Shown here: piece by piece, positions 15,205-29,033 of the stretch
How the letters are laid out: each line of letters starts with the position of its first letter
Numbering within the stretch: the stretch's first letter is position 1
From: Candidatus Marinacidobacterales bacterium
GTDB lineage: Bacteria; Acidobacteriota; Vicinamibacteria; Marinacidobacterales; DATDRI01
Assembly: GCA_965219415.1 (NCBI GenBank)
Contig: OZ244742.1
Coordinates: 704,001 to 768,000, forward strand
Length of the DNA: 64,000 nt
Direction of reading: 5' to 3'
Made by a program: the position numbers and the translations under genes
Notes under the pieces: generated by a model
Seen by the model: only the letters and a program-made list of their open reading frames with translations
Told to the model about the DNA's origin: nothing
Databases searched by the model: none

Positions 15205-16828
15205 GGATTGGCGTCTTAGAAATCTCCGCTGCAATTGCTGCCCGACAAATCCCCCTAGCGACCCGGTAATGATACCTGTCACAACGAGTCCAACGAGCTT
15301 CATTTCCGGCGTGGACGCAATCCTTCCTCCCGAACCCTCCAACGCTATCTCGACCAATATCCCCGCTACGATGGCACTAACGATGAGGCCAACCAATCCG
15401 CCAAACAGCCAACTGAGCTTGCTCCGGTTTGGTGGACAAGTTGACTATGCAAACCGGTTTGCTTCCAAGAGTCTAAGTTCGAACTCGATGAGACTGACGT
15501 TCCGGAGCGTTGAGTGCCGTCGCCTCGGGTTGTAGAAATTGGTGATGTAGTCGGCGGTAGCCCATCGCGCCTGCGCTCGAGTCGGCAGAACGAGTCGGTA
15601 GAGAGATTCGGTTTTCAGCGTGCCGAAGAAACTCTCGACGACGGCATTGTCCCAGCAGTCGCCCTTTCGACTCATGCTGCACTCGATTCCGTGGCGTCGC
15701 AAGAACGCGCGGTAGTCTCTGCTCGCGTACTGCACGCCACGGTCCGAATGATGAACCATCCCACGCGGTGGTCGTCGGTGACGCACCGCCATCTGAAGCG
15801 CCGAGACAGCGAGCTCTGCGGCGAAGATGATTCGCCACCGCCCAACCGATCACGCGCCTCGAAAATAGGTCCATGACCACGGCCAAATACAACCAGCCTT
15901 CCCACGTTCGGATGTAGGTGATGTCCGCAGCCCAGACTTCGTTGGGGGTCTTCGGCAAGAACTGGCGCTGCACGAGGTCTCGAGCTACGGGGCGCGAGTG
16001 CGACGAATCCGTCGTCTTCCGAGAACGTCTCGGCAGGCGCGCGCACAGGCCTTTCTCTCTCATGATGCGAGCAACGCGCCGACGCCCAACAGACTCACCA
16101 TCCGCACGGAGCTCGTCCACAACACGAGGACTTCCGTAAACTCCGCGGTTGGCTCGGAAGAACGCAACGATTTTTACGGACAGGCGCAGGTCATCTCGTT
16201 CACGGCGGCTGGGCTTCCGCCTCAGCCACGCATAGTAGCCGCTCCGAGAAACCTGGAGCAGCCGGCACATCCACGAAACGTGGAACTCCTCGCTTTGGAT
16301 CCGAATCGCTGCGAACTTCATTTCTTCACGCTCGCGAAGTACGCCGCCGTTTTTTTTAGAAAGTCACGCTCCATCCGAAGCTCCCGAACTTCCTTTCGGA
16401 AGCCACGCAGTTCTTCGAGTTCCTCGCTCGTCAGGGTTCCGGGACCGCCTTCACCACGGTCGATCTTGTCCTGCCTCACCCAGGCATAAAGCGACGTCTC
16501 CGTCACATCGATATCCCGGGCTACCACGCTCACTGCCTTGCCGCTCTCCCGAACCAGCTGCACTGCCTCTGCTCGAAATTCCTTCGTGAACTGCCGACGT
16601 TTCTTTTTCTCTGCCATCTGAACACCCATATATCTCTCCGTTCGTTAGGTGTCCACTGAAACGAAGCAGGCCCAAACCTTTCTTCCTGCATATGAACCCG
16701 GCTACTCCACCGCCGATCAAAAGAGTTGTATACCTCACAACTCCGCTGCCAAATGTCTGGGGCAAAACCAACGTAAGCGTGATTGCCGTTACGATGCCGA
16801 CAATTACGCCTAATGCCATTCGGAACAT
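15199..16828 (-). pseudogene. cassette membrane protein split by IS3
   Basis: Removing the IS and one AAC copy restores ...ICRKKGWLFGGLVG...; flanked by GTTAGGT and ACCTAAG. Confidence 0.75.
15414..16674 (-). mobile_element. IS3-family element (orfA 16318-16629; orfB 15445-16321 with an extra frameshift near 15820)
   Basis: TG...CA ends with IRs TGGGCCTGCTTCGTTTCAGTGGACA / TGAGCTTGCTCCGGTTTGGTGGACA; 3-bp TSD AAC; A8 slippery run; WAADITY, HHSDRGVQY, DNAVVESFF. Confidence 0.93.
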
Positions 16829-16930: not shown

Positions 16931-17404
16931 CGGCTCCTTCGCGGTCACGTGCCGCTGATCGTTCGGTAGCACATAGCAGCAGATCAACGGAGCGAGACAA
17001 TTGCCTTCTCATACACCGCAAGCGTGGTTTGCCTCCGGCACCGAAAACGAACCTTCTCGCGACCTCCAGCTCTCGAGGCGACATGGGCCTTCTCGCACTC
17101 TGCATACGATGGACGAAAGCGTTTCATACGCCTGCTAGATTCTATAAACGACGCCATCTCTTTGACGTTGTCCCAATGGAAGTCGAAGTCGAACTGAGTC
17201 TCCTGACGAACCACGAAGTGTCCTTGAGTGACAGTGCTCCGAATGGCCCGGTCGGACGCGTCGTCATCGGCTGCCATCCCGGTCGCATCGACCTCTCCAA
17301 CCTGGACCGCCCCGGCACTTACGAGTTCGATCGGGCACTGACCCGGCAGGGGCCGTACATCCACAAGAGTCCCGCGGCCAGCGAGAACCCGCCAGATTTC
17401 GTGC

Positions 17405-17423
17405 AGGGCATGGACCATGCCCT
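17405..17423 (-). promoter_or_regulatory. putative bacterial SECIS hairpin
   Basis: AGGGCATG-GTC-CATGCCCT perfect 8-bp stem starting 10 nt after the second TGA (17434-17436). Confidence 0.55.
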
Positions 17424-18713
17424 CGTGTGGTAGTCATCACAAGGACCACGCTAGGACGGCGATGTCGAAGGTCTCGGCGGAGCGTGTCAACAACATTGAG
17501 ACACCCGCGAGCTGCATTTAGTGGAGCCTCGATTGGTGTCAGGAGGGTCGTGACGTCGATTTTGTCCACGTCTGCCTGGATCGAGATCTCTTACGTGGAG
17601 CGGAAAAAGGGGCTACCCCAGGTATGGACCACCCAGAGAAAGTGGCTCCTAGGCGATCCTCGCGCGTGTTTTTGTCAGGTGGGGGGTTGATCCAAGCCTG
17701 AGACGGCAAAACAGGGGTTGAGGTTTTCCACGGACGAAGCGTTCGGGATGAGCCCGATGAGCGGCGAGAAGCGTGTGTCGGCGAGCCGCGTTGAGTTGTT
17801 CGGCGCGACCCTGATGAACGACGGCCGGTGTCATGAGACCGATTCCCGAGTGGCGGTGTTCGAGGTTGTAGTAGTCGAAGAAGTTGCGGCAGAACAGGCG
17901 AGCATCCTCGATGGAGCCGAAACGACGCGGGAACTGGGGGCAATACTTCAGCGTCTTGAACTGAGACTCGGAGTAGGGATTGTCGTTCGAGACGTGAGGT
18001 CGCGAGTGAGTCTTGGTAACGCCGAGGTCGGCCAGAAGCAAGGCGACGGACTTGCTTCGCATCGAGCTGCCACGATCCGCGTGGATGGTGAGCTGGCCTG
18101 GTTCGATGCCTTGCTTGCGACAGCTCTCGACGATGAGACGACGAGCGAGCTCGGCACTTTCTCGGTGAGCCAGCATCCAACCCGTGACGTAGCGGGAGAA
18201 GATGTCCAGGATCACGAAGAGGTAGTAGTAGGTCCACTTGACGGGGCCACGAAGCTTGGTGATGTCCCAGGACCAAACCTGGTTGGGGGCTTCGGCCAAC
18301 AGCTCCGGCTTGCGGTAGTTCGGATGGCACAGTTGGTTCCGACGTTCTCTGACTTCCCCCTGCTCCGCCAGAATCCGATACATCGTACGAATCGAGCAGT
18401 AGTAGGTTCCCTCGTCCAGAAGCGTGGCCCACATTGCGGCGGGCACTTTGTCGACAAACCGCTCGGAGTGCAACGCGCCGAGCACCTGCTCTCGCTCGGT
18501 CTCGTCGAGGGCTCGGTGGGGCCGAGGACGACGCTTCGGATTGGACGTCACCGGCCGCCGCCGGCGATACAGCGTGGAGCGAGCCACTCCCAGAGCCTCG
18601 CAGGCTTCCGCTGTCTGTCCAATCCGACCCGCCAGGTCCTCGGCCGCCGCCATCAATCGTTCTCGTCGCTGTCTGGGGGATTCAGGGGGATCCCCAGGAG
18701 CTCGGAGGCTTTC

Positions 18714-20090
18714 CTAAGAAACTCCGGTGTGCGGACTCGATGCAGCCGCCTCTACCAACGTGTAGCCTAATTGACGAGCGCGACGCTGGAGGTTGTGGAG
18801 GACCCTCTCCTGATAATGTCTCTCGTAGTAGTCGGTGCCAGGATCGACATAGGCGAGTCCGAAGCGAACGGCGTTGTAGAACAGCACTGCTAACTTTCTC
18901 GCTGTCGCGGTCACTGCCTTCGCCTTGCCGACTCGTGCGCCCACTCGACGGTAGAATGCACCAAGGGCGGTCTGCGTTCGCCCAACGTTCACCGCAGCGA
19001 TACGAAAGAGCGCGGCGGCGCGATTCGAGGACCGACGCGACTTCGAACTCAGCACGCGGCCGCCCGAGATCTTGTTGCCGGGTGCTAGGGTCAGCCACGA
19101 CGTGAAGTGTTTGGCGGTCGGCCATTTCCGCATGTCGTCACCGCATTCGGCGACGAGTCGCAGAACCGTGTACGGACCCAATCCATGGATCTGGCTCAAA
19201 TCGGCACCCAAGAGGGTATACAGAGCTCCCCGTACATCGAACTTCGGTTCGTTCTTCCCGCTCGCATGTCGGACACGTGGAATCGGCTCGTCGGGCGCAG
19301 TTCGATCGTGGTTCAGCTCGCCTATAGCGGCTTCGACCTCCACGTCGCATTCGGTGACCCTCGCTTGAACGAAGTCATAGAGTTGGAGCTCATGGCGTAG
19401 CGCGAAGAGGTGTTCGAGCCGGTAGTTACCTGTCAGAGCCTCGCGGATCGTTTCGACAGATTGCTTGCATCGGACGTCACGGTACTGGGCAAGCACGTCG
19501 GGCTCGTGAACACCGCCGACTATAGCGCGAATGATCTTCATGCCCGTGACACCTGTAATATCAGTCACTACGTGCTGAAGCTGGACGTTCATCTGCATAA
19601 GGGCTTTCTGCATCCGCTGGATGTGCGTCGCTGCCTGGTTGATGAGGCGTTCACGGTGGCGAAGAAGTGCCCGGAGCCGAACCAACTGACCACGAGGCCG
19701 GAAGCTGCCGCGAAGAAGACCATGCTCGTGCAGCTGCTGTAGCCACTGAGCATCGTTGACGTCGGTCTTCCGCCCTGGGACATTCTTGACGTCACGTGCG
19801 TTGACCAGGAGCACCTCGAACCCGCGCGCTTCCAAGATCTCGAAGGCTGGAATCCAGTACACTCCTGTCGATTCCATAGCGATGGTGGTGATCCCGACCT
19901 CTGCGAGCCAGTCGGCCAACTGGTGTAGGTCGCCCGTGAAGCTTCGAAACGTCCGCACGGACATCTCGACCCGCTCCGGTGGGACCGCAACCACATGGAA
20001 TGTCGCTCCGATGTCGATTCCTGCGGCGTTAACGTGGATGGACGTAATGGATCGTCTGGACGACTTCCGGCGCTTCCTTCTTGTCATCAT
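18714..20090 (-). CDS. IS110 transposase/recombinase
   Basis: DEDD motifs GIDIG, MESTGVYW, KTDVNDA; C-terminal ISGG serine motif. Confidence 0.95.
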   Translation of the reverse strand: MMTRRKRRKSSRRSITSIHVNAAGIDIGATFHVVAVPPERVEMSVRTFRSFTGDLHQLADWLAEVGITTIAMESTGVYWIPAFEILEARGFEVLLVNARDVKNVPGRKTDVNDAQWLQQLHEHGLLRGSFRPRGQLVRLRALLRHRERLINQAATHIQRMQKALMQMNVQLQHVVTDITGVTGMKIIRAIVGGVHEPDVLAQYRDVRCKQSVETIREALTGNYRLEHLFALRHELQLYDFVQARVTECDVEVEAAIGELNHDRTAPDEPIPRVRHASGKNEPKFDVRGALYTLLGADLSQIHGLGPYTVLRLVAECGDDMRKWPTAKHFTSWLTLAPGNKISGGRVLSSKSRRSSNRAAALFRIAAVNVGRTQTALGAFYRRVGARVGKAKAVTATARKLAVLFYNAVRFGLAYVDPGTDYYERHYQERVLHNLQRRARQLGYTLVEAAASSPHTGVS

Positions 20091-20094
20091 TCCT

Positions 20095-20310
20095 CCTTCC
20101 GGATTAAACCCGAAAGGAGGGATGGGCGGAAGTTCATCATTTTCCTAAACGGGATCGCCAAATGGCGCCACCACTGTCAAGTCCGCAGCCACCCCCGGAC
20201 CATGTTTTTTTACGGGATCGAAATCACCAGTAAGCGGACGGCCTCTCCTCTCGAGTAGCCAAGAGGGTAGCCGTCAGGGAGTTTCTGGTTCAACAGGAGG
20301 CGCGCCCGCG
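20095..20310 (-). ncRNA. putative IS110 bridge RNA, copy 1 (ends approximate)
   Basis: Duplicated CGATCCCGT motif, followed once by AAAAAAA (target match) and once by TTAGGAAA (donor match). Confidence 0.6.
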
Positions 20311-20322
20311 CTCGAAGGTTTC

Positions 20323-21699
20323 CTAAGAAACTCCGGTGTGCGGACTCGATGCAGCCGCCTCTACCAACGTGTAGCCTAATTGACGAGCGCGACGCTGGAG
20401 GTTGTGGAGGACCCTCTCCTGATAATGTCTCTCGTAGTAGTCGGTGCCAGGATCGACATAGGCGAGTCCGAAGCGAACGGCGTTGTAGAACAGCACTGCT
20501 AACTTTCTCGCTGTCGCGGTCACTGCCTTCGCCTTGCCGACTCGTGCGCCCACTCGACGGTAGAATGCACCAAGGGCGGTCTGCGTTCGCCCAACGTTCA
20601 CCGCAGCGATACGAAAGAGCGCGGCGGCGCGATTCGAGGACCGACGCGACTTCGAACTCAGCACGCGGCCGCCCGAGATCTTGTTGCCGGGTGCTAGGGT
20701 CAGCCACGACGTGAAGTGTTTGGCGGTCGGCCATTTCCGCATGTCGTCACCGCATTCGGCGACGAGTCGCAGAACCGTGTACGGACCCAATCCATGGATC
20801 TGGCTCAAATCGGCACCCAAGAGGGTATACAGAGCTCCCCGTACATCGAACTTCGGTTCGTTCTTCCCGCTCGCATGTCGGACACGTGGAATCGGCTCGT
20901 CGGGCGCAGTTCGATCGTGGTTCAGCTCGCCTATAGCGGCTTCGACCTCCACGTCGCATTCGGTGACCCTCGCTTGAACGAAGTCATAGAGTTGGAGCTC
21001 ATGGCGTAGCGCGAAGAGGTGTTCGAGCCGGTAGTTACCTGTCAGAGCCTCGCGGATCGTTTCGACAGATTGCTTGCATCGGACGTCACGGTACTGGGCA
21101 AGCACGTCGGGCTCGTGAACACCGCCGACTATAGCGCGAATGATCTTCATGCCCGTGACACCTGTAATATCAGTCACTACGTGCTGAAGCTGGACGTTCA
21201 TCTGCATAAGGGCTTTCTGCATCCGCTGGATGTGCGTCGCTGCCTGGTTGATGAGGCGTTCACGGTGGCGAAGAAGTGCCCGGAGCCGAACCAACTGACC
21301 ACGAGGCCGGAAGCTGCCGCGAAGAAGACCATGCTCGTGCAGCTGCTGTAGCCACTGAGCATCGTTGACGTCGGTCTTCCGCCCTGGGACATTCTTGACG
21401 TCACGTGCGTTGACCAGGAGCACCTCGAACCCGCGCGCTTCCAAGATCTCGAAGGCTGGAATCCAGTACACTCCTGTCGATTCCATAGCGATGGTGGTGA
21501 TCCCGACCTCTGCGAGCCAGTCGGCCAACTGGTGTAGGTCGCCCGTGAAGCTTCGAAACGTCCGCACGGACATCTCGACCCGCTCCGGTGGGACCGCAAC
21601 CACATGGAATGTCGCTCCGATGTCGATTCCTGCGGCGTTAACGTGGATGGACGTAATGGATCGTCTGGACGACTTCCGGCGCTTCCTTCTTGTCATCAT
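20323..21699 (-). CDS. IS110 transposase/recombinase
   Basis: Identical 458-aa protein to 18714-20090. Confidence 0.95.
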   Translation of the reverse strand: MMTRRKRRKSSRRSITSIHVNAAGIDIGATFHVVAVPPERVEMSVRTFRSFTGDLHQLADWLAEVGITTIAMESTGVYWIPAFEILEARGFEVLLVNARDVKNVPGRKTDVNDAQWLQQLHEHGLLRGSFRPRGQLVRLRALLRHRERLINQAATHIQRMQKALMQMNVQLQHVVTDITGVTGMKIIRAIVGGVHEPDVLAQYRDVRCKQSVETIREALTGNYRLEHLFALRHELQLYDFVQARVTECDVEVEAAIGELNHDRTAPDEPIPRVRHASGKNEPKFDVRGALYTLLGADLSQIHGLGPYTVLRLVAECGDDMRKWPTAKHFTSWLTLAPGNKISGGRVLSSKSRRSSNRAAALFRIAAVNVGRTQTALGAFYRRVGARVGKAKAVTATARKLAVLFYNAVRFGLAYVDPGTDYYERHYQERVLHNLQRRARQLGYTLVEAAASSPHTGVS

Positions 21700-21703
21700 T
21701 CCT

Positions 21704-21919
21704 CCTTCCGGATTAAACCCGAAAGGAGGGATGGGCGGAAGTTCATCATTTTCCTAAACGGGATCGCCAAATGGCGCCACCACTGTCAAGTCCGCAGCCA
21801 CCCCCGGACCATGTTTTTTTACGGGATCGAAATCACCAGTAAGCGGACGGCCTCTCCTCTCGAGTAGCCAAGAGGGTAGCCGTCAGGGAGTTTCTGGTTC
21901 AACAGGAGGCGCGCCCGCG
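21704..21919 (-). ncRNA. putative IS110 bridge RNA, copy 2 (ends approximate)
   Basis: Same sequence as copy 1. Confidence 0.6.
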
Positions 21920-22689
21920 CTCGAAGGTTTTTTTGGATCTCGAGCATCGTTTCCACCCGAGCGAGGCGACGCTTCAGTCGCGTGTTCTCGCGCGCGAGTT
22001 CCTTGATTCGAGGATCCTCGACCTTGCCCTTTCGTCCCCGCTTGATCGCGGCGAGCCCGACCCCCGCCATCTCATCCCGCTGGCGACGCCAACTCGACAG
22101 GAGCGACGAGTACAGTCCTTCTCGACGCAGAAGCGCTCCCACATCGCCATCACCCTTGCAGGCATCCGCTTCGCGCAGTATCCGCAGCTTGTACTCCGCG
22201 GTAAAGCGTCGACGCTTCGCTTGTTCACTCACTTCGGGATCCGGGGCCACCACTGCTTCGCGGCTGGCGGGTTCTACAGTCGCCCTACCGGCTCCTTCCG
22301 ACCCCGCCAAGTTCGTCTTCTCAGTCAACAGACTCATTCATGATCCTCCTCCGCCTTCCACACTAATTTCAAGGGGCGAAGTGTCTCAAGCATGTTGGCA
22401 CGGAGGGGTGCGGAATGGCAACGCCAGAGCAGTCGCCCGTAGAAAGCCTACACGCTGCCGAAGCTGCGGCGCACAGGCCTCAACGGCTGCGGCTAGCTCT
22501 TTCTCCTGAGGCTCGATGCCTACTACGAACGCCGACGCATTCGCATACCGGAAAGCCAGTCGACCGTCTCCCGAGCCAACTTCGAGTACTCTCGCGTTGC
22601 TAAAATCCGTGGCCTGCAGGAGAACCTGGGATTCTACTCCGTTGGGGTCGAGTTCAGTCGCCATCTCGTGTACTCCATGAAGAATCGCG

Positions 22690-22821
22690 GTCTAACAGTT
22701 GCGTTGAGCGGCGAGGCCAATCCCATCACGAAAGCACAATTCGTATCGAACCCTCATACGCCCATGATGTCAAGCTTCGCTGGGTTGAGAAGGGCTCGTC
22801 CGCCCAAACGCGTCGTTAGAC
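22690..22821 (-). other. attC site
   Basis: GTCTAAC ... GTTAGAC perfect core pair; the upstream gene's TAA lies in R''. Confidence 0.85.
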
Positions 22822-23459
22822 AGCACTTGGGTACCCAATTCGCTCCGCGTCAGCTTGAATATCCTGAAGGGAAATATCTCGATTGAGTTGGCGGATGAGT
22901 GTCTCAGAAAGCTCCTCTTGTCGGTAGATAGCCTCAACGGGCTCCAATGGCACTGACCGCTCAAAGTACTCCTCGGCCCAGGCTCGGTAGGTCTCAGCGT
23001 TGCCATCTAGAATCGCTAGCAACTCACCTGAGCCGTCCGGATCGTCTCCGACGGGATAGGAAATCTCACCGCAGTGCCACGACGGTTCTTCAAACTCGCG
23101 CCAAATACAGAAGGTGCTGTTCTTAATATCGAAGGCGGGCTCTGAGAGGAAATCAGCAAATACCGCAGGTAGCCCTCAAAGATCCCTGGCCAGGGTTCCT
23201 CCATTCGGAACATCGGCGATTCATGAGCTAAGCCCTTCAGTGCGACGCCGGCCGTTGTGAACAAGGCGAACCACTCGTCTCCGGAACCGTCTCTCATCGA
23301 GGCCATCTGCTCATCTTGTCCCCACTGCGAGTCGAACGAGTAGTAGCGGTCATCCCACGCCGGTTCGTTAATCGCATCGAGCATGGCAAGTGACTGAGTC
23401 AATCGCCTCAGTACAGGAATGTCCGGTAAGGCTCCGAGGTTCCGGGAAGAGATCACCAC
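22816..23459 (-). pseudogene. cassette hypothetical protein, frameshifted
   Basis: ORFs 23016-23459 (LAMLDAI...RYYSFDSQW...MRDGSGDEWF) and 22816-23022; bounded by GTTAGAC / GTCTAAC. Confidence 0.7.
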
Positions 23460-23460
23460 T

Positions 23461-23544
23461 GTCTAACAGTGCGGATCGGCTGTGGGGGTCGCGCCCAAGG
23501 CCATCGTGCGCGCGGACCTCGTCTGATGCATCCGCTTGTTATGC
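23461..23544 (-). other. attC site
   Basis: Minus strand GCATAAC ... GTTAGAC with GCGGAT/ATCCGC inner arms. Confidence 0.8.
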
Positions 23545-23824
23545 CCGCGCCTTACTAGACTCAAACGTCGACGCCACACTCACGCCCATATCCCACCTCA
23601 AGAAATCTCTGATTCCCAAGACATGCGCATAGCAGAGCGCATCTGCCACATGCGCGTGTTAGGCAGACCGCCACTCATTGGTCTCTCACTTCTCCCTCAC
23701 TGGGTGGTGCAGCCAATCGTGCTTCCACACGTTCTGTGGCCAAGGCCAGAACCCTCCTTGCTTTCCGCACGAACTCATAGTTAACGAGCACCCTCGGCCC
23801 GTCACCGGTGTGGTTGGCTAGAAA

Positions 23825-24124
23825 TCATCGATCTGACCAGACCGCTAACTCGTTTCCGCTCGGATCGGTGAAGTGAAAGCGTCTTCCACCCGGAAACTCG
23901 AATATCTCTCGGACGATCTGCCCCCCGCTCTCACAAACTCGGGCTTCGAGCTCTGCCAAATTCGTGGAATAGAGCACCACCAATGGACCGCCTGCCCGCA
24001 CCTCCGTCGCTACACTAAAACCGCCGGCTAATCGACCGTCGGTGAAGCTCGTGTAATCGGGACCATAGTCAGTGAACTCCCAACCGAAAACCTCTGAGTA
24101 AAACCTCTTGGTCTCCTCGATGTT
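23825..24124 (-). pseudogene. VOC family gene, 5'-truncated by IS256
   Basis: TKRFYSEVFGWEFTDYGPDY...FPGGRRFHFTDPSGNELAVWS; R''-like AGCCAAC just after the stop. Confidence 0.8.
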
Positions 24125-25493
24125 GGATCCGTCCCGCTTCCCGTGGAAATAAGAATGGCGTAACCTCCGGTTAAGCAAAACGAAACCGCGCCTGGAAAGG
24201 CGAGGAGGAGGATTACGCCATGAAGAAGCCTACCACCATATCGAAGGAGTCTGTAAGCGAGTACCGGGAGTTCGTCCAACTTCGGCTGCGTATGCGGGTA
24301 CTGGAGGCGATCGAGGTTGTGCTCGAGGAAGAAGTCGACCAAGCGCTGGGGTGTTGTAGCTACGAGCGTGCGGAAGACCGCCGTGGATATCGCAACGGAG
24401 CCGAAACCCGTCGCGTGACGACGTCGGTGGGAACTCGCGAGCTCCGGGTGCCACGAGCCCGCGTGCGAGACGAGGAAACGGGAGAAACGACAGAGTTCAG
24501 GAGCGAGCTGTTTGCCCCGGTACGCGCGCCGGACTCGTGAGGTCGACGAGGCGCTCTTGGGGACGTACTTGTCGGGCGCGAATAGCCGCCGGGTCCGCAA
24601 AGCGCTGAAACCACTGCTCGGTGAGGAGCACCTATCGAAGAGCGCGGTGTCTCGCGTGGTTAGCCGGCTGAAGGAGCGCTTCGAGGAATGGCAGAACCGT
24701 GCTCTCAGCGAGGAGGTCTACGCGATCGTTTACCTGGACGGCTTCCACCTGAAAGTGCGGATGGCGAAACGTGTGATCAGCGTACCCGTACTGGCCGCGC
24801 TCGGGGTCGCGCCAGACGGGCACAAACGTCTGTTGTCATTGCGTCTGGCGGTGAGCGAAGCCTCGACGCATTGGGGCTCCGTGCTGGAGGGACTCCAGGC
24901 TCGAGGACTCCGGGCTCCCAAGCTAGTGATCAGCGACGGCCACAAGGGGCTGACGAAAGCGCTGGAGAAGTGGCCGGGGTGCCGGTTGCAGCGATGTACC
25001 GAGCACAAGCGCGCCAACTTGCTCCAACATTGCCCGGCGCACGCACGCCGTGAGCTCCGGCGTGACTACAACCGGATCGTCTACGCCAAGAACGGGATCG
25101 ATGCTCGCAAAGCCTATGACGAGCTCGTCGCCAAGTGGACGCCTCTCGCGCCGGCCGTCGTCCGAAGCCTAGAGGAGGCCGGTAATCAGCTGCTGACCTT
25201 CTACGAATTCCCTCGTGCCATGTGGAAATCGTTTCGAACGACCAATGCTCTGGAGAATCTCAACCGCGAGTTTCGACGCCGGACGAAAACCCAAGCGTCG
25301 TTCTCCAGCGAGGAGTCCGCGGTCGCTTTGCTGTTTGGGCTTATCGCCTCTGGCCAGATTCAACTACGACGCATCGACGGCTACCAACGTCTGAGCGAGG
25401 TTCTCGAACACGCGGAGGTTGCCGCCTGATATGATACTCTGATGACGGAGTGGAGGGCGCCGTTCTTTTTCCACGGACCTCGGGACACATCCC
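24125..25493 (+). mobile_element. IS256-family element (second type); transposase 24220-25429 frameshifted near 24512
   Basis: IRs GGATCCGTCCCG..CCGTGGAAATAAGAATGGCG / GGATGTGTCCCG..CCGTGGAAAAAGAACGGCG; GYRNG, YLDG, ISDGHKGL, RTTNALE; no TSD seen. Confidence 0.88.
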
Positions 25494-25526
25494 GTTCCCA
25501 CGGTACATTGGCAGAAACTCCGAGCT

Positions 25527-25806
25527 TCACTCCCTAGCATCATCACCGTAAACCACTGGCCGCCCGGGACGCCGCGCCGCAGCCCTGAAGAGAAGGTAGG
25601 CCACGATGCCGCTAGCCAAGCCTGTGCCTGTGACAACGAGGCTGAAAAGTCGCGCAAATCCTCCGAAAATGACACCCTCACCAACGAAGCCGGCGTTTAC
25701 CTCTTTGGAAGAGAAAAAATACTCAAGCACCATCGTAACTCCTACGAATAAGCACCATACGCTCAATGCCGCAAGCAGAAACCCGAGTACTCTTCGCCAA
25801 CCCACC
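25527..25806 (-). pseudogene. membrane protein fragment, 5'-truncated by IS3
   Basis: Hydrophobic ORF VGWRRVLGFLLAAL... whose nominal start lies inside the IS end. Confidence 0.5.
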
Positions 25807-25877
25807 CCCCTCCGTGCCAACATGCTTGAGACACTTCGCCCCTTGAAATTAGTGTGGAAGGCGGAGGAGGATCATGA

Positions 25878-26345
25878 ATGAGTCTGTTGACTGAGAAGAC
25901 GAACTTGGCGGGGTCGGAAGGAGCCGGTAGGGCGACTGTAGAACCCGCCAGCCGCGAAGCAGTGGTGGCCCCGGATCCCGAAGTGAGTGAACAAGCGAAG
26001 CGTCGACGCTTTACCGCGGAGTACAAGCTGCGGATACTGCGCGAAGCGGATGCCTGCAAGGGTGATGGCGATGTGGGAGCGCTTCTGCGTCGAGAAGGAC
26101 TGTACTCGTCGCTCCTGTCGAGTTGGCGTCGCCAGCGGGATGAGATGGCGGGGGTCGGGCTCGCCGCGATCAAGCGGGGACGAAAGGGCAAGGTCGAGGA
26201 TCCTCGAATCAAGGAACTCGCGCGCGAGAACACGCGACTGAAGCGTCGCCTCGCTCGGGTGGAAACGATGCTCGAGATCCAAAAAAAAGCCTCCGAGCTC
26301 CTGGGGATCCCCCTGAATCCCCCAGACAGCGACGAGAACGATTGA
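25878..26345 (+). CDS. IS3 OrfA
   Basis: RRRFTAEYKLRIL HTH region, LLRREGLYSS, leucine-zipper-like tail. Confidence 0.88.
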   Translation: MSLLTEKTNLAGSEGAGRATVEPASREAVVAPDPEVSEQAKRRRFTAEYKLRILREADACKGDGDVGALLRREGLYSSLLSSWRRQRDEMAGVGLAAIKRGRKGKVEDPRIKELARENTRLKRRLARVETMLEIQKKASELLGIPLNPPDSDEND

Positions 26346-27460
26346 TGGCGGCGGCCGAGGACCTGGCGGGTCGGATTGGACAGACAGCGGAAGCCTGCGA
26401 GGCTCTGGGAGTGGCTCGCTCCACGCTGTATCGCCGGCGGCGGCCGGTGACGTCCAATCCGAAGCGTCGTCCTCGGCCCCACCGAGCCCTCGACGAGACC
26501 GAGCGAGAGCAGGTGCTCGGCGCGTTGCACTCCGAGCGGTTTGTCGACAAAGTGCCCGCCGCAATGTGGGCCACGCTTCTGGACGAGGGAACCTACTACT
26601 GCTCGATTCGTACGATGTATCGGATTCTGGCGGAGCAGGGGGAAGTCAGAGAACGTCGGAACCAACTGTGCCATCCGAACTACCGCAAGCCGGAGCTGTT
26701 GGCCGAAGCCCCCAACCAGGTTTGGTCCTGGGACATCACCAAGCTTCGTGGCCCCGTCAAGTGGACCTACTACTACCTCTTCGTGATCCTGGACATCTTC
26801 TCCCGCTACGTCACGGGTTGGATGCTGGCTCACCGAGAAAGTGCCGAGCTCGCTCGTCGTCTCATCGTCGAGAGCTGTCGCAAGCAAGGCATCGAACCAG
26901 GCCAGCTCACCATCCACGCGGATCGTGGCAGCTCGATGCGAAGCAAGTCCGTCGCCTTGCTTCTGGCCGACCTCGGCGTTACCAAGACTCACTCGCGACC
27001 TCACGTCTCGAACGACAATCCCTACTCCGAGTCTCAGTTCAAGACGCTGAAGTATTGCCCCCAGTTCCCGCGTCGTTTCGGCTCCATCGAGGATGCTCGC
27101 CTGTTCTGCCGCAACTTCTTCGACTACTACAACCTCGAACACCGCCACTCGGGAATCGGTCTCATGACACCGGCCGTCGTTCATCAGGGTCGCGCCGAAC
27201 AACTCAACGCGGCTCGCCGACACACGCTTCTCGCCGCTCATCGGGCTCATCCCGAACGCTTCGTCCGTGGAAAACCTCAACCCCCTGTTTTGCCGTCTCA
27301 GGCTTGGATCAACCCCCCACCTGACAAAAACACGCGCGAGGATCGCCTAGGAGCCACTTTCTCTGGGTGGTCCATACCTGGGGTAGCCCCTTTTTCCGCT
27401 CCACGTAAGAGATCTCGATCCAGGCAGACGTGGACAAAATCGACGTCACGACCCTCCTGA
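26342..27460 (+). CDS. IS3 OrfB DDE transposase
   Basis: WSWDITKL, IHADRGS, DNPYSESQF; -1 frame is open from the A8 run. Confidence 0.92.
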   Translation: MMAAAEDLAGRIGQTAEACEALGVARSTLYRRRRPVTSNPKRRPRPHRALDETEREQVLGALHSERFVDKVPAAMWATLLDEGTYYCSIRTMYRILAEQGEVRERRNQLCHPNYRKPELLAEAPNQVWSWDITKLRGPVKWTYYYLFVILDIFSRYVTGWMLAHRESAELARRLIVESCRKQGIEPGQLTIHADRGSSMRSKSVALLLADLGVTKTHSRPHVSNDNPYSESQFKTLKYCPQFPRRFGSIEDARLFCRNFFDYYNLEHRHSGIGLMTPAVVHQGRAEQLNAARRHTLLAAHRAHPERFVRGKPQPPVLPSQAWINPPPDKNTREDRLGATFSGWSIPGVAPFSAPRKRSRSRQTWTKSTSRPS

Positions 27461-27521
27461 CACCAATCGAGGCTCCACTAAATGCAGCTCGCGGGTGTCT
27501 CAATGTTGTTGACACGCTCCG

Positions 27522-27809
27522 TTGGTACCAAATGCCAGCCTCGCTCGTGAACTCTAGCCGCCTAATCTGCCCGATACGCTCCACCCACGCGTCGTATGGC
27601 AGCTCCGCGTGCTGTGACAACAACTGCTTGAGCTCCTGACGAGCGTCCGCTTTGTTCTGCCAGGCCGGCGCTCGGAGCCAACGCAAGCTCAGTACGTGGA
27701 ACGCGATGGCTACTGACCCGACGAAGAAACCGGCAACGCCACCTAGAGATTTGCCCGACTCTCTCCAGCCCGAGCTCAGTGCCGCCAGGTCTGCTTCTCT
27801 CGGCTTCAT
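27522..27809 (-). pseudogene. cassette gene, 3'-truncated by IS3
   Basis: ATG 10 nt after the cassette core GTTCGAC; ORF runs into the IS end. Confidence 0.6.
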
Positions 27810-27819
27810 TGTCTAGTGC

Positions 27820-27953
27820 GTCGAACACCGCGCTAAGCTGCAGGCGCGCATAAATGAAGGCGAGCATAAGCGGCAGCGAAGCTGCCGCGTTGCGAGCATC
27901 CTACTACGCGCGCGCGGACGTGCGCGCGGGTCAGCTTCAGCGCGTTGTTAGGC
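27820..27953 (-). other. attC site
   Basis: Minus strand GCCTAAC..CGCGCTGAAGCTG ... CAGCTTAGCGCG..GTTCGAC, with a single extra base in the arm. Confidence 0.8.
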
Positions 27954-27955
27954 CG

Positions 27956-29033
27956 CGCGAATTCATAAAGTAAGTGCAACACAGCTCCCGGATGAGGTGA
28001 CCTGGAATGTGCCACGATTCCTCAAACAACCAAGAATGGGGACTCGCTAATGACTTATTACCAGATCACCTCGGAAGAACGATACACCATCGCGGCGCTG
28101 CGACGGGAGGGATTTTGCTCGGCCGAGATTGCGCGGCGCCTGGGGCACCACCGGAGCACAATCTCGAGAGAGGTCAGGAGGAACAGCTCACGTAGTGATG
28201 GATGCTACCGGCCGAGCAAGGCCATCGAGAAAACGAACGGACGACGATCGCGGTCTCGCCGGAACCAGTACTTCACAAAGGCCGACTTTGCCCTGGTGGA
28301 GAAGAAGCTTAAGGCTGACTGGAGCCCAGAGCAGATCTCCGGCCACCTGCGCCTTCACGGCGAGCTCTCGATCAGCCACGAGACGATCTACACCCACGTC
28401 TGGCGGGACAAGGAGGCCGGAGGACATCTATACCGCCACCTTCGATGCTCGCCCAAACTTAGACGCAAGCGCCACAACAGCTATGACAGCCGAGGCCACC
28501 TGGCCGGGAAGCGTCATATCTCCGAGCGGCCGCCTTGTGTCGACAAGCGCAGTGCCGTTGGCCACTGGGAGATCGACACCGTGGTAGGAAAAGGCGCGCC
28601 GGACTGCGTAACCACGCTCGTGGAACGAAAGACGGGCTATGCGCTGATCGGCAAGCTGTCCGACCGCACCATGTTCAGCACTAGTCAGCGAACGAAGATG
28701 TTGCTCCGGCGGGTGCCGGAGCAGGTCAAGACGATCACCGCGGACAATGGTACGGAGTTCCACGACTACGAATCCGTCGAGGAAGCGACCGGCGTCAAGT
28801 TCTACTTCGCAACTCCCTATCACTCATGGGAGAGAGGCAGCAACGAGAACTTCAATGGCCTGCTACGACAATACCTGCCGAAGCGCACCAGCCAAGCAGC
28901 GCTCACGCAACGCGACTGCGATCGTATCGCAAACAAGCTCAACTCACGGCCCCGCAAGAGACTCGGCTACCGCACACCGGAGGAACGTTTCCATGGGCTC
29001 TAACGAATGGTGCGCTTCAAACTTGAAGTCACA
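27956..29033 (+). mobile_element. IS30-family element
   Basis: Imperfect IRs (CGCGAATTCA / TGTGACTTCA); 3-bp TSD CCG. Confidence 0.85.
28050..29003 (+). CDS. IS30 transposase
   Basis: STISREVRRN, WSPEQIS, GHWEIDTV, TADNGTEF, WERGSNENFNGLLRQY. Confidence 0.95.
   Translation: MTYYQITSEERYTIAALRREGFCSAEIARRLGHHRSTISREVRRNSSRSDGCYRPSKAIEKTNGRRSRSRRNQYFTKADFALVEKKLKADWSPEQISGHLRLHGELSISHETIYTHVWRDKEAGGHLYRHLRCSPKLRRKRHNSYDSRGHLAGKRHISERPPCVDKRSAVGHWEIDTVVGKGAPDCVTTLVERKTGYALIGKLSDRTMFSTSQRTKMLLRRVPEQVKTITADNGTEFHDYESVEEATGVKFYFATPYHSWERGSNENFNGLLRQYLPKRTSQAALTQRDCDRIANKLNSRPRKRLGYRTPEERFHGL

Follow-up and report, generated by a model that had tools for sequence, protein, structure and literature searches.

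In the bridge-RNA system of IS621 of Escherichia coli, as set out in PMC11208160 and PMC11208158, a recombinase with a DEDD motif and a catalytic serine is guided by an RNA from the non-coding end upstream of its gene. Two pseudo-symmetric loops of that RNA serve the target and the donor, and a 2-nt core forms part of each guide. The guide comes after a GU linker and before "handshake" dinucleotides, and insertion is scarless. ISEc21, another element of the IS110 type, targets a conserved coding stretch of IS3 transposase genes at the DDE codon. Head-to-tail IS110 units have also been described, in two preprints: a CazIS110-1 assay gave complete units in this arrangement in 3/96 colonies (10.1101/2025.10.25.684509), and natural tandem IS110 loci have been collected (n = 437; 10.64898/2026.08.14.744561). 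Here, we analyzed a 64,000-nt stretch of the genome of Candidatus Marinacidobacterales bacterium (assembly GCA_965219415.1, contig OZ244742.1, positions 704,001 to 768,000 of the forward strand; G000:C1:704001-768000 in our numbering), hereafter the window, in which an IS110-family element interrupts an IS3-family element. Very probably, this is an active bridge-RNA-guided IS110, present as a dimer, whose guide is addressed to the poly-A slippery run in transposase genes of the IS3 type.

The element shares with IS621 the DEDD and serine recombinase, the guide RNA in the non-coding end upstream of the gene, the two pseudo-symmetric loops for target and probably donor with the 2-nt core in each guide, the GU linker before the guide, the handshake dinucleotides after it, and scarless insertion. 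It differs in guide order. The described IS621 loop has a long guide of top-strand sequence on its 5′ side and, on its 3′ side, a short complementary guide followed by the handshake (PMC11208160, PMC11208158), whereas here the order relative to the gene is mirrored, the long sense guide and handshake lying 3′ of the hairpin and the short complementary guide 5′ of it. Against the same descriptions, the core is AA and not CT, the target is a transposase A-run and not a repetitive extragenic palindromic (REP) sequence, and an outer helix closes both modules. The protein has 458 aa against 328 aa in the solved IS621 chain, and the similarity appears by profile only (E 1e-20). Like ISEc21, the element is an RNA-guided IS110 naturally aimed at IS3-family transposase genes; unlike ISEc21, and comparing by description, it occupies the orfA/orfB A-run upstream of the rve domain and not the catalytic codon. 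The IS110 bridge-RNA class, the targeting of IS3 by an IS110 (ISEc21) and tandem IS110 units are already published. A slippery-run target, a clade with a fixed A7 guide in IS3 and IS630 elements, and a mirrored guide order were not found in the literature searched on IS110 or bridge RNA together with IS3, and slippery-run sites may be listed in the supplementary target tables of Durrant 2024 or Siddiquee 2024.

The element and its host comprise the following features, in window coordinates:

17478..22408, minus strand: IS3-family element, here called IS3-A, split by the IS110 dimer into an orfA side (21928-22408) and an orfB side (17478-18712)
25807..27521, plus strand: intact sister IS3-A, with orfA at 25878-26345, the A8 slippery run at 26281-26288 and orfB in the -1 frame at 26342-27460
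18713..20318, minus strand: IS110-family element copy 1, 1,606 bp without the core, right end at 18713 and left end at 20318, bounds taken from the junctions at three sites
20322..21927, minus strand: IS110-family element copy 2, head-to-tail with copy 1 at a period of 1609
20319..20321, minus strand: inner right end-AAA-left end junction of the dimer, one A beyond the AA core
21928..21934, minus strand: left junction A7, five target A's plus the AA core
18710..18712, minus strand: right junction A3, made up of the AA core and one further A, the last of the target run
18714..20090 (copy 1) and 20323-21699 (copy 2), minus strand: transposase/recombinase gene, 458 aa, identified with Pfam

The two flanks of the dimer match the intact sister with 100% identity over 480 nt and 99.9% over 1236 nt (blastn), and Pfam placed HTH_Tnp_1 in the open reading frame (ORF) at 21819-22337 and rve with rve_3 in the ORF at 17649-18656. 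In the sister, the empty target CC-A8-GCC is present at 26279-26291. Its orfA reads CTC-GAG-ATC-CAA-AAA-AAA-GCC, that is LEIQKKA, across the A8 run and terminates at LEIQKKASELLGIPLNPPDSDEND and a stop codon, while no stop codon interrupts the -1 frame from the run to the rve ORF. The host thus has the IS3 layout of orfA (HTH) in frame 0 and orfB (rve) in frame -1, overlapping at the A-rich slippery heptamer A-AAA-AAA. This heptamer is the classical type of frameshift window in the IS3 family, and frameshifting in the sister is predicted from family knowledge. The dimer has the same orientation as the IS3 gene and separates its OrfA part, which binds DNA, from its catalytic OrfB part. The cut orfA now continues into the left end of the IS110, giving the 172-aa ORF 21819-22337 compared with 155 aa before. 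As orfB is severed from orfA, the interrupted IS3-A copy can, judging by its reading frames, no longer make the OrfAB transposase.

The initial annotation had placed an IS110 inside the A8 run of an IS3 copy with the empty site preserved in a sister, and the IS110 and IS3 domains, the junctions and the sister A8 run all agree with that placement. It had taken the interval 18700-21940 for one IS110, which is instead a tandem dimer of two identical 1,606-bp copies at 18713-21927. The apparent discrepancy that it noted, a left junction of 7 A where 8 were expected, disappears once both sides are counted, because 7 on the left and 3 on the right make 10, or A8 plus the AA core. A third type of IS3 element also lies in the window, about 2.4 kb from the dimer; its intact A8 run (16343-16350, minus strand; G000:C1:720350), in the context DFLKKTAAYFA, is unoccupied, and an element of the same type hosts a single IS110 copy elsewhere in the genome.

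Across the genome, five IS110 copies of 100% identity are present at three sites, together with a 37-nt right-end remnant. All three sites are A8 runs in the orfA/orfB frameshift window, in three different IS3 elements. In the direction of the IS110 gene, the window dimer runs from GAGATCC-A7/CCTTCG to CTTAGG-A3/GCCTCC; on the plus strand, the outer junctions are GGC-TTT/CCTAAG and GAAGG/TTTTTTT-GG and the inner one is GAAGG-TTT-CCTAAG. The second dimer, on contig C3, repeats these A counts, including the 3-A inner junction, in a diverged IS3 host. The single copy, on C1, runs from GACTTTCT-A6/CCTTCG to CTTAGG-A4/CGGCGG, and intact copies of this third IS3 type carry A8 and read DFLKKTAAYFA. 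Left and right A's add up to 8 + 2 both where the single copy stands and across the outer junctions of the dimers. Because this sum holds at each site, the exchange is read from the junctions as recombination at an AA core common to target and donor, with each insertion adding 1,606 bp plus 2. Insertion at these sites is therefore scarless, at a shared 2-nt core and without further target duplication, as in the IS110 group, and the same rule of counting restores the flanking reading frames in relatives.

The recombinase carries PF01548 (DEDD_Tnp_IS110, 4e-24) and PF02371 (Transposase_20, 1.8e-12) by Pfam. As a single sequence, the 458-aa protein had no match among PDB sequences with phmmer, and a profile was required: built from 13 homologues, it matched the IS621 transposase 8wt6 in two stretches (E 1.1e-20), and the positions D, E, D..D and S named for IS621 in PMC11208158 line up. 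The protein accordingly has the combination expected of the IS110 group, a RuvC-like DEDD domain and a Tnp domain with a catalytic serine.

Upstream of the gene, in the non-coding end, we predict a structured RNA with the following parts, all repeated in copy 2:

20111..20253, minus strand: bridge-RNA core of copy 1, with outer helix P1 formed by 20253-20247 and 20117-20111; the copy 2 equivalent lies 1609 nt further
20232..20235, minus strand: 5′-side target guide GCUU, within GUCCGCUUAC at 20239-20230
20205..20211, minus strand: 7-nt target guide AAAAAAA, after the conserved hairpin and CCCGU, comprising 5 left-flank nt and the AA core
20204-20203, minus strand: handshake CA, directly 3′ of the AAAAAAA guide
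20142..20148, minus strand: 7-nt donor guide UUAGGAA, equal to the element's own right end CTTAGG plus the AA core
20141-20140, minus strand: handshake AA, directly 3′ of the UUAGGAA donor guide

In the RNAalifold consensus, P1 closes two modules, each with a stem, an internal loop and a hairpin: P2 and P3 are the stem and hairpin of module 1, P4 and P5 those of module 2. An alignment of 39 left ends showed 96.1% of cells paired, compared with 40-61% in slid controls, and changes on both sides in 16/28 pairs, among them 7/7 pairs of P1 and 4/6 of P4. P2 and the base of P3 are nearly invariant and so outside the reach of the covariation test. The covariation score was 0.375 against 0.176 in shuffles, with 0/500 shuffles as high, and the single-sequence fold gave z = -2.3. 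A fold check proposed with the initial annotation thus returned a two-module structure, and a structured RNA with two internal loops upstream of the gene is a feature of the IS110 group.

The word CGATCCCGT occupies 20149-20157 and 20212-20220 of the minus strand and recurs in copy 2. It has 5 matches in the window where 1.33 are expected, a number reached in 0/100 shuffles. Both modules have a hairpin ending in CCC, then GU, then a variable 7-nt word. The initial annotation had reported this duplication at the non-coding end and had read the two following words, AAAAAAA and TTAGGAA (20148-20142), as matches to the left target and to the element's own end junction, readings that have held up: the second word is the right end CTTAGG with AA, and the first finds its counterpart in relatives, as described below. 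Its right-hand guides fared less well. GGCT (20187-20190) is part of the covarying helix P4, the right-target guide being GCUU at 20235-20232, and the donor guide GGTTT (20106-20110) could not be confirmed. GCUU is complementary to A-A-G-C on the sense strand, the second core base and the right flank. In this register, the third site should have 6 and 4 A's, as it does, CCGCUU there facing A-A-C-G-G with one mismatch.

Two other placements of the guides were considered and rejected. The A7 guide on the 5′ side of the loop, as in IS621, was overturned by the consensus fold and by the position of GGUAC in one relative (G004). Matches of the GGUUU or GAUGCU kind downstream of P1 had appeared complementary to the left end in G000 and in a second genome (G048), but as left-end guides they are unchanged in G044 and G047 despite different left ends.

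In relatives with other targets, the module 1 word changes together with the flank. It is AACUAAG in G048 and UUGACAG in G004 and G053, and equals the element's own 7-nt left flank in 9/9, 6/6 and 7/7 copies, respectively (22/22 in total). AAGUUAG (G044) and UUGUUAG (G047) match 6/7 left-flank positions each (loci L024 and L009), and at a third G044 locus, a tandem inner junction, the word matches 2/7. The constancy of the A7 segment across different targets, which would have spoken against a guide, was thus not seen. In the families without A7, the left end begins with the handshake dinucleotide, CA or CG. The handshake also matches the right flank in part, and its match to the left end fits the "handshake guides" acting after strand exchange in PMC11208158. 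The module 2 word varies as UUAGGAG, UCGAAAG and UCAGGAA, each equal to its own right end in all families read. For the 5′-side guide, 30 distinct guide/flank pairs with 18 distinct guides gave 91/150 Watson-Crick pairs with the right flank, compared with 66.6 ± 5.0 for shuffled flanks (0/5000 as high). Two cases illustrate the pairing: in G004, GGUAC faces the conserved right flank TACC, and in the member shared by Salmonella and Serratia, GGCCUU faces AAGGCC. Loop 1 guides hence covary with both the left and the right target, again as in the IS110 group; this is the covariation that the initial annotation had proposed to test. On the donor side, the 3′-side word is the right end plus core, and no 5′-side donor guide for the left end was found, with only one covarying position.

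Taken together, the word on the 3′ side of module 1, AAAAAAA, has the same sense as the left A-run and includes the AA core, and GCUU on the 5′ side is complementary to the A-A-G-C right of the crossover. The word on the 3′ side of module 2, UUAGGAA, is the element's own right end with the core, and recombination at the AA core accounts for the A counts at the junctions. In the mechanism that we propose, the lineage would specialize on A-runs of IS3 and IS630 transposase genes, sites that would be multicopy, kept by the needs of the host element and harmless to the cell. Read-through from the promoter of the host IS3 may supply the bridge RNA and the recombinase; such an outside promoter is plausible because integrated IS621 expresses its RNA weakly, according to PMC13626964. 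The truncated OrfA′ may still act as a regulator.

Relatives were collected by two routes. Within the same taxonomic order, 15/55 genomes had a match at E 1e-30 or better, and a search for the pattern CCCGU-A7-CRUGG in one genome per species (596 Gb) returned at least 117 stretches. The counts that follow refer to the matches listed from this second search. An IS110 ORF, 48-80% identical to the window protein, lies 80-400 nt downstream in 62/121 pattern instances; the chance expectation for a 17-mer in 596 Gb is about 100, which fits the remaining 59. The left flanks of the 62 elements comprise 22 ending in FKK, 20 that are IS3-like (ending in ERDILK or IIEIQK), 2 ending in DALHCQK and 8 others; in the remaining 10, a tandem or the end of a contig leaves no left flank to use. 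Among the left-flank peptides of at least 60 aa, 40 were distinct, and of these 20 matched HTH_Tnp_1 of the IS3 OrfA family, 15-17 the IS630-type HTH_28, HTH_23 or HTH_32, 5 HTH_Tnp_IS630, 1 DDE_Tnp_1_assoc (ISAs1-type) and 1 an AidB-type acyl-CoA dehydrogenase. Hosts include Alpha-, Gamma- and Deltaproteobacteria and Acidobacteria, among them Salmonella enterica subsp. arizonae, Serratia aquatilis, Roseiarcus fermentans and Syntrophorhabdus. On the other side of the insertion, the right-flank ORFs contained rve in 6/6 tested IS3-class cases and DDE_3 in 3/4 tested FKK cases.

Beyond the pattern search, the Salmonella-type member had matches in 546/5426 complete Escherichia coli genomes and was full-length in 74; in the sole E. 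coli context read (H2), it lies between an orfA fragment and a fragment annotated "IS3 family transposase". A frameshifted copy of 82-85% identity sits in an IS3 A6G site in genome G003, from which no other result here is drawn. In contigs of public runs, additional IS3-like flanks appear as loose ends on either side of the element. Some individual loci deserve mention. The AidB-type acyl-CoA dehydrogenase gene is a rare non-transposon target, occupied at locus L157 by an A7-guide element after RIAFQK. In E. coli, at locus L174, an enterobacterial member lies in an island by tRNA-Leu, close to a broken integrase and to the reverse transcriptase of a group II intron. The A counts of loci L137 and L139, which share one kind of host gene (NTIGRTLKK), are 6+3 and 6+4; the single extra A at the right junction would follow if insertion can proceed from donors with either 2 or 3 junction A's. 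The 58% identical relative in G048 has AACTAAG always on the left (loci L008, L023, L037 and L042), and these four copies stand within a short repeat, between GAGCCGTGGAGAGTTT and GGGCNTGACTC. A second IS110 lineage of 47-49% protein identity is present in our genome in seven or more copies, including C1:169318-170670, C1:665325-666677, C1:1519781-1521133 and C3:2134873-2136225; one copy of this lineage lies about 1 kb from the single A7-guide copy.

Specificity within the genome was gauged from its A-runs and from matches to the predicted target. At 59.2% G+C, the genome has 537 A7, 104 A8 and 13 A9 runs. For the predicted 12-nt target, 331 empty sites score at least 10/12, and 32 of them are IS3 frameshift windows, so that insertions in IS3 windows at three out of three sites correspond to (35/334)^3 = 1.2e-3. 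The 37-nt remnant (G000:C3:4546040-4546076, locus L006) is followed by AAA and a repeat of the form CCCTTTGC-A7-9-GCGCTTACGCTCC with at least 15 genomic copies, an A-run target outside IS3; this flank, an A7-9 run and then GCGC, fits the guide at 4/5 positions.

A number of observations weigh against our interpretation. Within the genome, 31 non-IS3 sites score at least 11/12 and are nevertheless empty, although the occupied sites score 10/12, and twenty copies of another IS3 with T-A7-GCC are unoccupied. Better-matching empty sites and these empty IS3 copies imply that base pairing alone is insufficient for the distribution: it sets the kind of site and not which sites are filled. To account for the latter, pairing must be supplemented by a scarcity of transposition events, by the survival of insertions that do no harm, or by other determinants. 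As to the guides, a position-by-position complementarity matrix did not locate the 5′-side donor guide, giving a single isolated signal. G048, G004 and G053 each carry one invariant 7-mer in all copies, so that its position outside the element is shown only by the G044 tandem junction and the A7 clade. The right flanks in G048 do not fit the G048 5′-side guide; these may be half-matched insertions. Regarding the RNA, Rfam had no matching family in window 17000-28000 at E up to 1, a scan for a sigma-70-like promoter across the junction of right end (RE) and left end (LE) found 0, and RNA runs contain at most 0.17 of the stretch's sampled words. The RNA is a prediction from sequence, and so are its expression, ends and processing. 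Lastly, the 39 sequences of the fold test and those of the guide/flank test are related, so the shuffle counts of 0/500 and 0/5000 overstate significance.

A different explanation for the pattern is generic homing to A-runs, in which the guide would read no more than A7 and some neighbouring bases, the location in IS3 and IS630 elements would be a by-product, insertions elsewhere would have been purged and no specialization on transposons would exist. Long A-runs of GC-rich genomes would, on this explanation, concentrate in frameshift-type transposase genes anyway. The genome does offer 654 A-runs of at least 7, the 331 sites scoring at least 10/12 are mostly outside IS elements and empty, one relative sits in the AidB-type gene, and some copies in one alphaproteobacterial metagenome-assembled genome have flanks that misfit the 5′-side guide. 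We nonetheless regard generic homing as unlikely, given that at least 18 versions of the 5′-side guide within the A7 clade track the bases after the A-run (GCC, GUU or GUG for IS3, CUU for IS630 and GGCC for A6G-type IS3) and that at least 35 of the 40 distinct left flanks among the matches listed, from unrelated phyla, are transposase DNA-binding domains. That the guide versions follow transposase families points to long-term adaptation to those hosts. It is far less probable still that the three sites in our genome are not independent and go back to one chance insertion, a composite IS3::IS110 having been copied as a unit. The two tandem sites share the 7/3/3 A counts and have similar IS3 hosts, as such copying would predict, but numerous differences separate their IS3 flanks on C1 and C3, against 100% identity of the IS110 copies; the third site, with the FLKKTAAYFA context and 6/4 counts, belongs to another IS3 type; and the pattern recurs in relatives of other phyla.

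Specialization on the slippery run could also be taken further, to an obligate "parasite of parasites" with a fixed A7, an evolving short guide, switching between IS3 and IS630, co-directional insertion with transcription supplied by the host, hosts reduced to OrfA only (regulator-only), dimers traveling with a permanent donor junction, and, through the mirrored guide order, a recombination polarity inverted relative to the gene. We put this forward tentatively, as a reading that is plausible in its parts and on balance somewhat doubtful as a whole. Part of it touches a suggestion of the initial annotation, which saw a guide tuned to a multicopy, constrained site whose occupation disables the host IS3. 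The tuning and the disabling agree with the three IS3 A8 sites and the orfA/orfB split, and the "safe harbour" that it attached to them stays an inference. Its expectation that flanks of other copies would be related also agrees with what was found, three out of three sites here being IS3 A8 runs and the listed relatives lying mostly in IS3 or IS630 elements.

The tandem arrangement itself could be an artefact of assembly, such as a circle or a mis-joined collapsed repeat. Identical 1.6-kb repeats are hard to assemble, and no contig of the runs compared spans the inner junction with 31 nt on both sides. Contigs from these runs show the RE-LE junction, at which circle and tandem are indistinguishable, and a contig of run X1 covers 20292-20480 without difference and crosses the RE-TTT-LE junction with only 28 nt on one side. 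Even so, an artefact seems quite improbable, since the same dimer stands at two loci, the RE-TTT-LE junction is present in that contig, tandems with inner junctions of 2-4 A exist in other public assemblies (L087, L100, L109, L111 and L010 of G044) and two preprints report tandem IS110 units.

As in the CazIS110-1 and natural-loci preprints, the duplication is a head-to-tail one of complete IS110 units. Here, the inner junction is one A longer than the core and the same dimer occupies two loci. A second in-register insertion into the left or right junction was rejected as the origin, as it predicts outer counts other than the observed 7/3/3. These counts would fit either an LE x RE exchange offset by one A within the homopolymer or a circle with 3 A's that inserted again. 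Both dimers being alike in different IS3 hosts suggests, as the simplest reading, a single origin of the dimer followed by its movement as one piece.

If the guide is indeed programmed for the slippery run, the element represents a natural bridge RNA directed at the programmed-frameshift run, which serves other mobile elements as a functional signal; such a site is multicopy, conserved by the host element and without cost to the cell. The relatives form a natural series with one fixed and one variable guide, from which the targeting rules of a mirrored, AA-core bridge RNA can be read. Members in well-studied enterobacteria make the idea directly testable. Interactions of this kind between transposon families, through the silencing of IS3 and IS630 elements and possibly the borrowing of their transcription, could shape the IS load of genomes.

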